Shown: in pieces, positions 24,850-34,826 of the stretch
Position numbering within the stretch: position 1 is the stretch's first letter
Layout: the number at the start of each line of letters is the position of its first letter
Assembly (NCBI GenBank): GCA_051530055.1
Contig: CM121341.1
Location: 9,650,784-9,714,783 of the forward strand
Direction: 5' to 3'
Length of the DNA stretch: 64,000 nt
Source: Neoechinorhynchus agilis
Lineage: Eukaryota; Animalia; Acanthocephala
Translations under genes and position numbers: made by a program
Notes under the pieces: generated by a model
What the model was told of the DNA's origin: nothing
Seen by the model: only the letters and a program-made list of their open reading frames with translations
Database searches by the model: none

Positions 24850-25600
24850 TAAACATTATTATTGTGATTTGAGTTTTGAAAACTATTTACAATCTACGAC
24901 CGTCATTATCATGAAATAAAAAGACATCAGGTGTAGCATGTGAACATAGGTTGTGCACGTGTGTTGTTTTGGTGTGTGTGTTGCGTCGAATGAAACATGA
25001 CATCTGGTGACAGCGATGGACAGATTTGGAAAATACTGGAGCAACAAGCGAAGATGATCGAGATGTTGACGAACAGACAGATCAAATATGAAGAGGATCA
25101 GGAAGCGCGAAATAGATCAATGATTTCTGCGACGGAGGTAGCGAAAGTTAACATCACGCCGTTTCGCCAGTATGTGGAGCAGGACGAAAAATGGAAAGAT
25201 TACACACTTCAGTTGGAACAACATTTCGAGTGGTGCCAAGTAAAGGAGTCAGCTTGTAAAAAGTCATGCCTGCTGTCGTGGATCGGTGCAAAACCGTTCC
25301 GCCAATTGACGAAAGCCCTAACAAGAGACAAATTGAAGGATGTGTCCTACGAGCAGGTAGTAGAGGCTATGGGGAAGCTAGTGGGAGCAGTCGAACATGA
25401 AGTAACGGCTAGATTTAAATTCGGTATGATAAAGATGAAAGAAGATCAAACGTATGCGGAATGGATCGCAGAGTTAAAAGGTGCAGGCGAAAATTGTAAA
25501 TTCTATAAAGAAGAAACAAAAACGGAGGCTGATGCTTTATCCGAACGGATGCGCGATCATGTAGTGCTAAACACGCCGTTTCGATCGAAAGTCTATTTTC
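24850..25600 (+). mobile_element. Ty3/gypsy LTR retrotransposon 5' end: LTR remnant, PBS and gag N-terminus; pol and 3' LTR absent
   Basis: CA end at 25001-02, then PBS-like TGGTGACAGCG (25005-15). gag-like WKDYTLQLEQHFE...LLSWIG...EHEVTARFKF...Q.EDQTYAEWIAELK...C.F...MRDHVV. The LTR start is approximate. Confidence 0.8.
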
Positions 25601-28600
25601 GCAATTCCGGTCAAGTTTTAAAAGAACTGACCTCAATCAGTATCTGGATTTGACAGCTCCGATGAGCCAGAGCAATGTTGCTGTAGTTGCTGTCACTACA
25701 GTTGTGAATCTAATAGATAGTGACTCGAATCCAATTCATAACATCGGTCAGTGGAAAACGGAAAGTCCAATAAGATATGAACTACCTTATCGAATGGAAC
25801 GAGATATCTTCGGGGTACTTGTTAGTACCATATTACGGCTATTTGATGTATCACCGGTCAATGAATTGAATAAACTGCATTATCAAGCAAAGGAAACATG
25901 TATACAGATTGATGGTCCAAATCATGCGAATCCATGTCAATCCAATCTATGTAGCATTGGAGACGTGGTGAGGTTAACTTCGGTTAACTAGTCAACCTAC
26001 ACCGATATAAAAAGGATCACGGAGCGTTTAGAATGTAAGATGGCAAAAGCCATAATCGAAACTACCTCCCGAGCAACTCCCTATCTCTTGGCGGTGATTA
26101 GTTCATCTTCTAGAAAGCCATATCTTGAATCCTTTAAGATATCACATTCAGATGAATCAAACCAACTCAACGCAACATAGTGAGACAATGAAAACGCATG
26201 TTAGTGAACTTGAGCGGTTGATCAGTACTGGCGTTTTCATTCCGATTGAGCAAGTTGGGAATCGCTTTACGCTCGGCTATACGCCGGTGTATGGCGTCCC
26301 CATCCGCTCTAGTCGGGAAGTTGATTGCTGTACTGTTAGCTTGCCTCCCAGTGTGAGTGTACAAAATAGTGAGTGTGTGAAAAGTGGTATTTCGCTGTCG
26401 GGAAAGCCTTTACCCCCCAAGGCCCCGTGTGCGAATAGACCCATCGGGTATATGCGTGAAGCTCCAAATCCGACTCTTGAGCTCCGCAATGCAGGTGGTT
26501 TTTCAAAAGATCGGCTCGTATCTCAACTTATCGCAAAGTACGAACCGCGAGGTGGTCGGGGTGTGTCTATGGACGCTTCTAGCGCCGCGTGTATAAATGA
26601 GATGAAGGAGACACCCGCCACCCAGGCGACGCTGAAGGCAGAGACCACTGCCGAGCGTGGGCCACAATCTTCATCTCAGGCGACGTATACGGCAGATACC
26701 ACTGCCGTGCGTGAGCCGCACTATTCAGTTTCCGCTGCGGTTGCGAACCCAAGTACTGGTAATTGTAATATAGCGTCTGCCGTGCTTGCACCAACTCCTA
26801 GCGAGAGGCAACTACTTCATTACCGCAGACCTTTGTTGCCGGGTCTTCTGTGTCCGAGGCCGTCGTGCCACTCTCTACCGGTGATCCTGCTAACTGGAAA
26901 ACTCTTGGTATCTGTCGTTTGGCTACTGGTCATTTAAAAGATCTGGTTGGATTTGCTTTAGCAGTATTTTCCCGTCGTCCGGACGAACTTTTCCAGGCTA
27001 CCTGCTCCTTGCACGGAACTGCTTCTAGACAAACGGGGGTTTTGAATTAGCAGCTGTACCTCTCGATACGCCCCATAACGAGCAGAAGATATTCTTAGAT
27101 GCATTCCTCGCATTCTACAAGGACATCGCGCAGCCATGCTGCTTAAAGCCAGAACAAATCAGTGATTACGAGGTGGACCTTCCTTCTGGAACAACGCTCA
27201 GTCCTTCCGATTATTATGCCGTCTACGTTAACCACCAACGTAAGACCTGCGCGAACTGTCGGAAGAAAATTGCGTTAGCGGCATCTTCGAAAAAGAATAT
27301 CCACGCCTGGGCCCATTACTTGTTTAATCGGGCTTTTCTAAACCTAGACATGAATAATGAACTCTCGATTCGAGAAATCTTTGAAACTACCAAATCATAT
27401 CATACTATCAAGATAAAAAGGGATTCATCCAATCTTCTCCTAATCCGCTCTCTTTTTGCCGTTCAACTTTTTAGACTCAAACTTCTGTCGGACTGCGAAC
27501 TCGAAAAAGGCGCGCTTGTCACTGCGTTTTCATGCCCACCTTCGATGCCCTACCAACTACACACGCTCGTGTCGAGATGATGACAAGAACTTTGCTCACT
27601 AGAAGTAGAGCAGCTCTAGCTTCCGCCTTCCCGGGCTGTGTCCAGTCAGCCATTGGGCCGCAGCTCTCGACTCCTCTTATGGACCAAAAGAAACAAGTTG
27701 ACACCGTTCTGGTTAGGCCTTCAGAAGACATTAGTTTTAGCCGTTCTGCTCAGCCCGAAGAAACTTTAGTGCCGCAGGGTGAGCTCTCCGCTATCGCTCG
27801 GATTCTCGAAGCTTCCCCAGCTGATCTGCTACACAGTGCTAATCCTACGAAAACACGGGCTAAACTTCGAGCAACCATCGAGAAAGTCTTGGCTAAGAAG
27901 AGGATCGATTTCAAAGAGCTTCTGTCACAAAATAAGAAACAAGTGGAGTCAACACGAGAGGCTCTAGTCAAACGTCCACGTGATCCCGTCCTTCTGAAGA
28001 TTCTAGATGATTTGAGGGAAGCACAACTTAAGATTGATTCGAGCCTTACATTGATAGAAAAGGTTGTGGAGGAAATTCAGGCTTTGGCATATCTAGATGA
28101 TCTCCCAATCATGACTACATACTGTGACGACCTGGATCTGGATTCTTTGCCTAGTAGTCCTGTCGACTTAGGAACTGCTTTTCTAGCTTACATAAGCAGG
28201 GCTAGGGCTACTCTAGGTCAGATGGAATACGTCCGAGTGGACAAAAGAGAGAAACGCGATGGCTATAAGAAGTTCAACACTTTCGTCCCCACTGATAAGA
28301 ATGGATCCTTTACTCGGGATATGGAGGCCGCCATACGAAACTTTAAGCATGAAAGTGCGTTCGTTGGGGCTACGACCATAACCGAAAAATCTGAGGGAAT
28401 TGATCACAAAATCCGTAATGACGTTCGAGTTCGTGCCCACTTCCTTCTCAACAAGATTGGCACCTCGAAGAAGCGTCTTATGGGTCTTTGCTTCGCCCAC
28501 AGAAATAACCAGCCTATGTTGCGTGCTCTAGCGCACGGACTCAACTCTCGTAATCAACGCTTGTGTGCTGCATTCTGCAAAGAGTTAGATACCCTGAACG

Positions 28601-33600: not shown

Positions 33601-34070
33601 GGTTATTCCCAGAGGTTCAATATGAAAGGTATGAGGCCCATCTGCGGGGCGAGGATTACTATTTCAGTAGGTTCGCTAGTGACGAACAATTTAAACCTCC
33701 TCAGATACCCTTTGCTGAACTGGTCTCGTTTGTGGCTGAGGTGCTCCAAACGGATTCAGATGTTGTGTTTCGAATCTGTAATCAATTGGATTCCGCTCGG
33801 TCGTTGACGGAATTCCCGATGGATGAGATGCAGCATCTGTCTGCCAAGGTGGAAGTGTCAGCAGAGATTGATGGTGAAGTGGTGGGCACAACCGGGGACA
33901 CGATTAATGCCAAGAAAGAAGTCCCAGCAGAATGCGCAGCAACCAAAGTTGCCCACGTTGCCGAGTCAACCTCGACCTCAGCAGCGCAATCAACCCAGGA
34001 GCTCACAAGGCGGGCGAGGAAGAGGAGGCGTAGGCGTACAGAAAAACTAACAACTATCCATGGACTTTGA
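30637..34070 (+). CDS. Endogenous viral element: nodavirus-like protein A (methyl/guanylyltransferase plus RdRp), interrupted by an 89-nt insert at ~32011-32099
   Basis: Capping domain HSHPMAAARR (31510), DVDYY, YTFIP, VDGGAVYEHELWDY. RdRp motif F FQKAETY..PRNIT, motif A TDFSRFDG (~32990), motif B SGSSDTSAMNS, motif C YGGDDG (33291), motif E FLGRIY. The true start is uncertain (30637 or ~31052). Confidence 0.92.
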
Positions 34071-34826
34071 ATTAAATGAGGACTGGTATGATTACCTTGA
34101 ATCAGACACCTTAACACTTGCGAGCCTCCAATCTGAATTCCCCGGGGAATCATGGGGACGTTTTACTTTAGGCGGCGGTTGACTCCAAGGACGTGATCTA
34201 TATCCCTGCTCAGGTTGGGGATGACAAAACGGCAGTGGCGGCAATGGGATTGGCTGTGAGTCGGGAGTTCCCATTCTCCCACGAAATGTTAGTGGCGACT
34301 ACCTGTTGGCCAGCGCTCAACAGGCCTCATATCGCGTACAACCGAAACCTCGATGTGGATCAGGACGTCGAGGACTTGCAACTCCCTTCAACAGTGCTCT
34401 GGGACATCTACTCTAGGCTGTGCCATTTCTACGATTGGTTCGACCTCTTTGACAACATGGTGCGGAGTGTATTCTTCGATGCAATACGAGTTGAAGGAAA
34501 GCCAGTTTACCGAGGTGTGAACGATTATGTGCAGCGTCCGCCACCCTCCGACCTCCGGGCGCTAGGCTTAGGACTCTTGATGGAGGGTATTGAACTTGGG
34601 GAAAGCACCCCTACACCGGACTCGTCAGCGCTATTTCGAGAAGCGGTGCTTCGGCACATCCTCGTATCTTCAACTTATGCGGAGGCAGCCCAGTGCAGTG
34701 GGTACCTTCACATCACACTCGGAATGGGCGAGAGATTCGTGAATCCTCTTTTATTGAGAGACTACAATTGTTCGCAAGGGAACGTTGTTCCACGAGTGGC
34801 TTCCGAACTTTGTAGGCGAGCCGGCT
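33907..34826 (+). pseudogene. Putative viral structural (capsid-like) ORF overlapping the RdRp 3' end in another frame, truncated by a CRE element
   Basis: ATG 33907 gives a basic Q/P/R/G arm (MPRKKSQQNAQQPK...GGRGRGG). TAA at 34048, the same frame continues (MDFELNEDWY...), then a 1-nt shift near 34170 leads into the 34193-34840 frame. Confidence 0.55.

Follow-up and report, generated by a model that had tools for sequence, protein, structure and literature searches.

A very probable nested composite endogenous viral element in the genome of the thorny-headed worm Neoechinorhynchus agilis

Does a block of virus-like open reading frames in a worm chromosome represent one virus with a new genome plan, or several viral sequences joined together? 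The question is raised by positions 25578-34825 of a 64,000-nucleotide stretch of Neoechinorhynchus agilis DNA (contig CM121341.1), which as a whole is referred to here as the window. The original prediction, made from sequence alone, read this block either as the genome of a single unsegmented virus, in which a 5-kb ORF precedes a noda-like replicase, or as two viral RNAs concatenated during reverse transcription. Our analysis indicates that the block is very probably a nested composite EVE whose pieces derive from three or more RNA viruses unrelated to one another. The explanation that best accounts for the whole is probably a rhabdovirus-type backbone with nested toti-like and noda-like inserts, built by serial capture through reverse transcription.

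Layout and genomic setting of the block

As originally proposed, everything in the block lies on the plus strand and no intron is needed; the gag-like ORF to the left of the viral pieces has the same orientation. The features are as follows.

24997-25577, plus strand: truncated gag-like ORF of a high-copy element, directly fused to the viral block (Pfam PNMA, E 0.025, below cut-off)
25578-26151, plus strand: A1, internal part of a likely glycoprotein gene, containing one in-frame stop (Pfam Rhabdo_glycop_CD, E 0.031, below cut-off)
26152-30527, plus strand: B, toti-like virus insert of 4.4 kb (collinear with P0019; 17 homologues)
30528-31034, plus strand: A2, 3' part of the same likely gene; its membrane-spanning helix starts at about 30880 and is followed by a short tail (hydropathy)
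31035-34040, plus strand: C, noda-like replicase (capping domain and RdRp) of 3.0 kb, cut at both ends (Pfam, PDB)
32006-32094, no strand: fold-back duplication interrupting the replicase frame (hairpin z -16)
34041-34112, plus strand: A3, gene-junction-like motif, followed from ATG 34060 by the acidic beginning of the next ORF, probably the L gene (motif in the window)
34113-34825, plus strand: D, internal fragment of a multi-copy, probably viral ORF (P0020)
34826-37713, minus strand: non-LTR retrotransposon copy at the right end of the block (RVT_1; 93.5% identical to 53702-56697)

The block is integrated in the genomic DNA of Neoechinorhynchus agilis. It is flanked within the 64-kb window by host-type repeats and genes, and all of its 30 bins are covered in each of two DNA runs: X1, which may be the sample from which the window derives, and X8, another sample, whose raw reads cover 30/30 bins (499 of 1092 at >=99%). 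Three further runs, X2 to X4, all from one study, are putatively RNA. At five internal junctions, contigs continue across for at least 31 letters in both directions: at 26152 and 30528 in X2, and at 31035, 34041 and 34113 in X1. Homologues place two of these junctions independently, as the P0019 match ends at 30524 and the P0020 match begins at 34115. The bridged junctions, the X8 reads and the host-type flanks make an assembly chimera or a contaminant very unlikely, although the fold-back duplication and some of the frame breaks may be assembly errors. The fold-back is absent from the X1 contig, and X8 depth dips there, with the joint listed neither way; it is either private to the window copy or an artefact of assembly. 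Neither a host gene, nor a transposon gene, nor a misassembly, the three outcomes named in advance as speaking against a viral block, was found.

The flanks differ from the block in copy number and kind. Depth over the gag-like ORF, which from its look we take to be of Ty3/gypsy type, reaches 2332 in X1 versus 45-120 inside the block, and other copies of this ORF continue with different letters behind 25578; the sequence that crosses the gag/A1 junction at 25578 reaches only 28 letters into gag. Neither an LTR pair nor a primer site or pol can be seen within the window. On the right, searches found neither a target-site duplication of the non-LTR retrotransposon nor a continuation of D behind it.

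The composition shift near 31.0 kb described in the original prediction was also seen. In composition, A1 and A2 are alike (p 0.66), and each differs from B, C and D (p <0.001), with a GC content of 0.365 in A2 versus 0.475 in B and 0.505 in C. The block holds sequence from more than one virus family, B being toti-like via P0019, C noda-like, and A rhabdo-like by a weak resemblance. A search of NCBIfam gave chance matches only.

Sources of the pieces

The backbone pieces likely represent a rhabdovirus-type glycoprotein-polymerase gene pair, judging from the sub-threshold Pfam match of A1, the membrane helix of A2 and a motif in A3. This motif, an A-run, CT and AACA at 34042-34052, presumably resembles rhabdovirus gene junctions; similar strings occur at three other positions in the window. 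The acidic ORF that starts at ATG 34060 has only 17 codons within the window. Homologue and PDB searches with A1 and A2 (the latter database also with an A1 alignment) gave nothing useful. Recognition of the backbone changes the reading of three elements of the original prediction. The spacer of about 100 nt is coding sequence of the backbone gene. The helix near 30880, taken as the membrane anchor of the replicase, lies upstream of the 31035 junction and belongs to the backbone gene. The overlapping capsid-like ORF dissolves into the backbone, which supplies ATG 34060, and the separate internal fragment at 34113-34825. Candidate anchor helices within C are a marginal one at 31321 and, in a 51-codon ORF of another frame, a strong helix at 31052; the strong helix near 30880 is outside C.

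The region at 25.6-30.5 kb, described as a giant orphan ORF, now consists of at least six ORF pieces in three frames, the longest of 804 codons, for which no longer homologues were found. Homologues of B read through the frame breaks of the window copy, so a giant ORF must once have spanned the middle of this region; the first 574 nt, on the other hand, come from another source. Some of the breaks match indel differences present in most reads and therefore may be assembly errors. B comprises much of this giant ORF1, frame-broken and with an internal deletion near 30090, followed by some 145 codons from the start of a polymerase ORF; the window copy ends before the RdRp core. Homologues of the upstream ORF were gene models of Neoechinorhynchus agilis in all cases (17/17). 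P0019 is collinear with B up to 30524 and then continues into RdRP_1/RdRP_4, and its RdRp motif SGWKWTALLDT is common to three viral contigs, two of which (8.4-8.8 kb) carry an RdRP_4 ORF that overlaps a giant ORF1. The RdRps of the toti-like IMG/VR contigs L059 and L061, which we place near giardiavirus/IMNV-like Ghabrivirales, match P0019 with E 2e-23 to 9e-11. The ORF1 of B showed no detectable likeness to ORF1 of toti-like contigs, to Pfam or to PDB, PDB searches with B and P0019 gave nothing meaningful, and the structure prediction of ORF1 (mean pLDDT 43) was too poor for a fold search aimed at a toti-type capsid fold. Other copies of B elsewhere carry different letters before 26152 (X1; 24 reads in X8).

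A possible splice acceptor lies at 27475, where contigs of X2 and X3 start behind a pyrimidine run and AG, and a contig of X4 reads through.

The noda-like replicase itself was correctly recognized in the original prediction. Pfam matches at 31.5-34.0 kb are Noda_Vmethyltr (E 2.7e-48) and RdRP_3 (E 3.7e-7), and the only PDB match of C is the RNA-directed RNA polymerase of entry 8fm9 (E 3.5e-31), which we take to be Flock House virus protein A. Near 32.0-32.1 kb the fold-back duplication breaks the reading frame of the replicase, whose apparent stop codon falls past the 34041 junction. At 31114-31224 the 21 listed differences fall 9/6/6 on the codon positions, which does not distinguish the coding frame. 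C shares 30-44% identity with environmental noda-like contigs and 88% with 3.6-kb contigs in X2 and X4 (contig depth ~225). This close relative was not seen in two DNA runs, and it appears to be a virus now infecting the same species. More distant relatives of B occur in the same putative RNA runs.

These comparisons bear directly on the possibility of a single unsegmented virus in which the replicase follows a 5-kb ORF. Everything is on one strand and, as originally noted, one frame stays open through the capping domain (30301-32091), but this frame crosses two junctions and so does not point to a native link. P0019, a member of the upstream ORF's family, carries its own toti-type RdRp. The 88%-identical relative of C has at most 129 nt before the position equivalent to 31082 and no 5-kb leader; in the window, 5.4 kb of other sequence stands ahead of C. 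Among noda-like contigs matched by the capping domain, this domain lies within about 1.2 kb of the 5' end in 55/58, and none of the 58 matches A, B or D. Together with the copies lacking an insert that are described below, these observations leave a single unsegmented virus scarcely credible.

D is 96% identical to P0020 from 34115; upstream of this point P0020 continues with other residues. Its depth in X1 is 164-258, it belongs to no Pfam family, it has no relative among viral contigs, the 58 noda-like and 3 toti-like ones included, and its structure prediction (pLDDT 32) was too poor for a fold search; nothing in these results marks it as a capsid. C and D are indistinguishable in composition (p 0.37), so D could be a second noda-like segment; nothing was found in favour of this assignment. 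The sources in the block are the three identified ones plus piece D, arranged in a nested manner. The suggestion that viral RNAs were joined is upheld in spirit, probably by way of reverse transcription, with more sources than two and not end to end.

Insert-less forms and assembly of the mosaic

Copies lacking one or the other insert exist. In a contig of X1, 26151 is linked to 30528 through 25 letters that the window lacks, the short side of the joint being only 30 letters; this B-less form, present in DNA, differs from A1 at 2 of 574 letters and has a different left neighbour. A single contig of X2, with depth 5.7, links 31034 to 34041 through 21 letters of its own and departs from the window behind 34112. 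Neither joint is listed in X8. Because 21-25 letters of each insert-less form are missing from the window, these are not simple deletions of the window form. The X1 contig covering 30528-34108 has no branch at 31034, so the B-less copy in X1 likely carries C; these forms are known from short-read contigs, which are unphased and from which contig simplification could have removed a branch.

The composite likely grew stepwise. In the first stage the backbone would have existed alone, as in the X2 form. In the second, the noda-like piece would have taken the place of the last 21 nt or so where the glycoprotein gene ends, and in the third, the toti-like piece would have displaced 25 nt inside this gene, with the whole becoming fused to gag. 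At each capture, a retroelement particle may have packaged a second viral RNA (or a transcript from another integrated copy) along with the transcript of the earlier element, and the reverse transcriptase of an LTR retrotransposon would have jumped to the second template and then back. A single round of reverse transcription in a co-infected cell, jumping among three or four free viral RNAs, would also give a uniform strand, and co-infection is plausible given that the close relative of C and the more distant relatives of B share the same putative RNA runs. It is nevertheless improbable, since the B-less form, 2/574 differences from A1, is found in DNA and likely shares the C junction, and a single pass would have to return exactly to one template twice, which is the less parsimonious assumption.

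Capture could instead have taken place at the DNA level, with viral cDNAs or pieces of integrated copies patched into double-strand breaks and 21-25 nt lost per site. Small deletions without visible microhomology suit end joining (none could be demonstrated at these junctions), the genome holds multiple copies of both B and D, which are hence available as DNA donors, and a complete LTR element was not seen in the window. A single orientation shared with the gag-like ORF, however, is not favoured by random capture of DNA, and the different left neighbour of the B-less form fits a new copy rather than insertion in place. We lean slightly towards template switching during reverse transcription within the stepwise scheme and regard patching of DNA breaks as possible though rather unlikely.

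Relation to known elements and implications

The closest precedents come from Aedes aegypti, where composite EVEs combine different RNA virus families in one orientation beside LTR fragments, copy-choice by the reverse transcriptase of LTR elements has been put forward as their origin, and some EVEs are 85-97% identical to circulating viruses (10.1101/127498; PMC8048955). Most mosquito elements share the strand of the neighbouring LTR element (10.1101/127498). The element described here is similar in its mixed-virus pieces of one orientation, and the adjoining gag-like ORF may represent a comparable LTR neighbour. It differs in its acanthocephalan host and in that the pieces abut with no transposon sequence between them, two are nested in the gene pair of one virus, and intermediates seemingly occur side by side. 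Mosquitoes already provide examples of composite viral loci next to LTR elements; what is new is the host phylum, the co-existing intermediates and a seemingly live cognate virus.

Compared with Nodaviridae RNA1/protein A and noda-like viruses, C has the same order of Noda_Vmethyltr and RdRp, but it is a cut fragment whose upstream anchor is not its own; the contig of its relative is 3.6 kb. Compared with toti-like dsRNA viruses (L059, L061), P0019 shares the RdRp motif and a large ORF1 followed by an RdRP_4-type polymerase ORF, whereas ORF1 of B is without detectable likeness and the window copy stops before the RdRp core.

Among acanthocephalans, rhabdovirus-like putative EVEs consisting of RdRp fragments on unplaced contigs, with uncertain host, are reported from Pomphorhynchus laevis in a 2025 paper, which also states that no viruses were previously described for this species (PMC12548735). 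Both cases would involve mononegavirus-derived sequence in an acanthocephalan assembly; the available text of that paper does not mention a toti-like or noda-like element or a mosaic (PMC12548735).

The finding removes a false "new virus genome plan" and puts a testable composite EVE in its place. It also indicates that thorny-headed worms harbour three or four as yet undescribed RNA virus lineages; our searches retrieved no description of any. The co-existing forms with and without each insert offer a rare view of the order and route by which a composite EVE is assembled. The locus itself appears partly transcribed and would have no viral role; if anything, it may serve as a source of piRNAs, and a part in piRNA defence is doubtful. 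More speculatively, and with a low likelihood in our view, an LTR element might re-copy an EVE and splice in the next virus, giving an ordered, CRISPR-array-like record of infections whose stages segregate and which yields piRNAs against the current noda-like virus; if true, such serial recapture would be the first case outside arthropods. Neoechinorhynchus agilis keeps piRNAs with ping-pong and has no host RdRP (PMC12256650). With ping-pong piRNAs and an apparently circulating, 88%-identical noda-like virus in the same species, heritable antiviral defence outside insects becomes testable with small-RNA data.

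Composition of the block and its presence in host DNA

The block (25578-34825) consists of a discontinuous backbone, A (A1, 25578-26151; A2, 30528-31034; A3, 34041-34112), a toti-like insert, B (26152-30527), a noda-like replicase insert, C (31035-34040), and a terminal piece, D (34113-34825). Its reading frames are:

25533-25991, plus strand, ORF piece
26098-26937, plus strand, ORF piece
27029-27580, plus strand, ORF piece
27475-29889, plus strand, ORF piece
30301-32091, plus strand, ORF piece
32034-34070, plus strand, ORF piece
34172-34840, plus strand, ORF piece

A gag-like ORF is the direct upstream neighbour, and a LINE copy, 93.5% similar to another in the window, begins at 34826; its 5' end carries a 36-nt perfect-spaced inverted repeat (37701-37772). 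Elsewhere in the window are two host-type genes, an MFS_5 transporter ORF (45192-46037, E 1.4e-31) and a kinase piece (14651-15127) flanked by a 61-nt inverted repeat. A 136-bp tandem array (59570-64000; at least 33 copies, 93% alike), possibly a retrotransposon-derived satellite, starts within an ORF matching RVT_1 (58929-59858).

We compared the window with five of the nine sequencing runs listed for it: two of DNA (X1, possibly from the same sample as the window's source, and X8, from a separate sample and study) and three that a tool guessed to be RNA (X2, X3 and X4). Both DNA runs covered the block in 30 of 30 bins. Contigs with at least 31 letters on each side bridged the junctions at 26152 and 30528 (X2) and at 31035, 34041 and 34113 (X1). 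These five internal junctions are real, and the block is most unlikely to be the misassembly or contaminant that the original prediction had allowed for. Among the pieces listed, the gag junction is spanned with just 28 letters to one side of it, and 34826 is bridged by none. A variant lacking 427 nt at the A3/D border (34108-34536; depth 15.7 in X1, three reads in X8) shows that the locus is polymorphic or that further copies are present.

Sources of the inserts

Searching 1.84 billion representatives with the 804-codon ORF piece of B yielded 17 homologues, all "hypothetical" N. agilis proteins, several of them on contigs of 7-19 Mb. Four gene models (P0004, P0006, P0007 and P0019) are collinear with 26173-30524, their alignments passing through the frame breaks. 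Beyond the match, P0019 continues into a polymerase (RdRP_1, E 1.9e-7; RdRP_4, E 2.8e-5) that matches all three candidate viral contigs and shares the motif SGWKWTALLDT with them; in two of the three, an ORF1 of 1600-2050 codons is overlapped by an RdRP_4 ORF. Because P0019 is modelled over an integrated, partly duplicated copy, its layout is good but imperfect evidence. Judged from these homologues, the upstream ORF was the giant ORF of a toti-like virus with its own polymerase. The giant orphan ORF of the original prediction thus holds in that the frame was once giant; the window contains no single 5-kb ORF, and the polymerase belonging to this family is of toti type. The giant ORF1s of the toti-like contigs L059 (91-6237) and L061 (143-5020) carry a NUDIX domain, and that of L059 also a dsRNA-binding motif.

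Window-like contigs from X2-X4 cover 27.1-30.3 kb at depth 8-17, with the left flank and integrated C near zero. If these runs are RNA, B is transcribed, possibly with contributions from other copies, the contigs giving neither strand nor level. Contigs from X2 and X3 both start at 27475, right after a splice-acceptor-like pyrimidine run and AG; an X4 contig passes through. N. agilis is reported to keep ping-pong piRNAs and to lack a host RdRP (PMC12256650), so the locus may have a piRNA role. Remoter relatives of B in X2 and X4 (28399-28451 and 29239-29567; short matches, long loose ends) are either other integrated copies or free toti-like virus.

The nodavirus-like replicase is confirmed by its Noda_Vmethyltr capping domain (E 2.7e-48), RdRp (E 3.7e-7) and one PDB match (E 3.5e-31); a fold-back duplication breaks its frame near 32.0-32.1 kb. 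Both presumed RNA runs examined at 85% similarity (X2 and X4, one study) contain a contig, 3625 nt long in one and 3599 nt in the other, at a depth of about 225, that is 88% similar to 31082-34036. At 21 listed differences (31114-31224) the relative's letter is absent from X1 (depth 45.5) and from the 5-12 reads of X8; the relative is apparently free. Outside the stretch that resembles the window, the two contigs extend 129 and 62 nt upstream of 31082 and some 610-650 nt downstream of 34036. Contig ends need not be true ends, yet a 5-kb leader would not fit, and the 3' sequence is not that of the window. Among 58 noda-like contigs, found via the replicase and possibly incomplete, 55 are hit by the capping domain, whose distance to the 5' end has a median of 305 nt and a maximum of about 1209 nt; none of the 58 matches A, B or D. 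At the 5' end of C, another frame holds a 51-codon ORF (31052-31207) whose product has a strongly hydrophobic helix (2.56). This ORF may encode a small membrane protein or represent the source virus's real anchor region; the 21 differences listed for 31114-31224 split 9/6/6 over the three codon positions, favouring neither frame.

The only homologue of D, which is multi-copy in DNA, is N. agilis P0020 (96%). It matches from 34115 and runs on upstream with other residues, making D an internal fragment. The ORF had been called capsid-like; D matches no Pfam family and no relative in the 58 noda-like or three toti-like contigs, its predicted structure has a pLDDT of 32, and it is at most a candidate capsid.

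Backbone and likely growth of the composite

In X1, a contig of depth 29.9 connects 26151 with 30528 through 25 letters foreign to the window; in X2, one of depth 5.7 connects 31034 with 34041 through 21 such letters and departs from the window behind 34112. A1, A2 and A3 are therefore neighbours in other copies. A1 and A2 are alike in composition (p 0.66) and unlike B, C and D. A1 weakly matches Rhabdo_glycop_CD (E 0.031), A2 carries a terminal membrane helix with a tail, and A3 has an A-run/CT/AACA motif, which we take to be a rhabdovirus-like gene junction, ahead of an acidic ORF start. Homologue searches with A1 and A2 found none. We read the three as a putative rhabdovirus-like G-L region. 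That A copies differ at so few letters (2 of 574) points to a young element. The supposed spacer and the replicase's "membrane anchor" both belong to this backbone gene, and the frame open from 30301 crosses B, A2 and C by chance. With a separate polymerase family for B, a relative of C that has no room for a 5-kb leader, and copies that lack either insert, the proposed new genome plan falls away.

The B-less and C-less forms carry letters that the window lacks, and so are not deletions of its form. An X1 contig (30528-34108) shows no branch at 31034; C is thus probably retained in the B-less copy of X1. Together these imply a series in which the backbone alone would have been followed by backbone plus C, and then by backbone, C and B fused to gag; the first form could be a free virus and not integrated at all. 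Every piece lies on the same strand as the gag-like ORF, a pattern that in Aedes has been taken to indicate copy-choice by LTR reverse transcriptase (10.1101/127498). From these unphased contigs we lean modestly towards an element that was re-copied several times with template switching; capture at DNA breaks we hold unlikely, and one multi-jump event more doubtful still.

Mosaic-looking gene models and comparison with published work

Three gene models look mosaic: P0002 joins a B-type ORF1 to an RdRP_4-like piece, P0005 joins one to a gag-like zinc knuckle (E 0.008), and P0020 joins an RdRp-like start to D. P0019 has internal duplications. Judging by such sequences, loci of this composite kind may be widespread in the N. 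agilis genome. Our search, mostly of non-subscription papers, found no pertinent publication on acanthocephalan RNA viruses or nested multi-virus elements. Rhabdovirus-like sequences are reported from Pomphorhynchus laevis (PMC12548735); in the transcriptome paper on N. agilis the words "virus" and "viral" occur in the reference list only (PMC12690905). Aedes has mixed-family viral loci beside LTR fragments, with elements 85-97% similar to circulating viruses (10.1101/127498; PMC8048955). The present block likewise combines pieces of different virus families, and it adjoins a gag-like ORF; new here are the phylum of the host, what look like stages of growth, and a seemingly live cognate virus.
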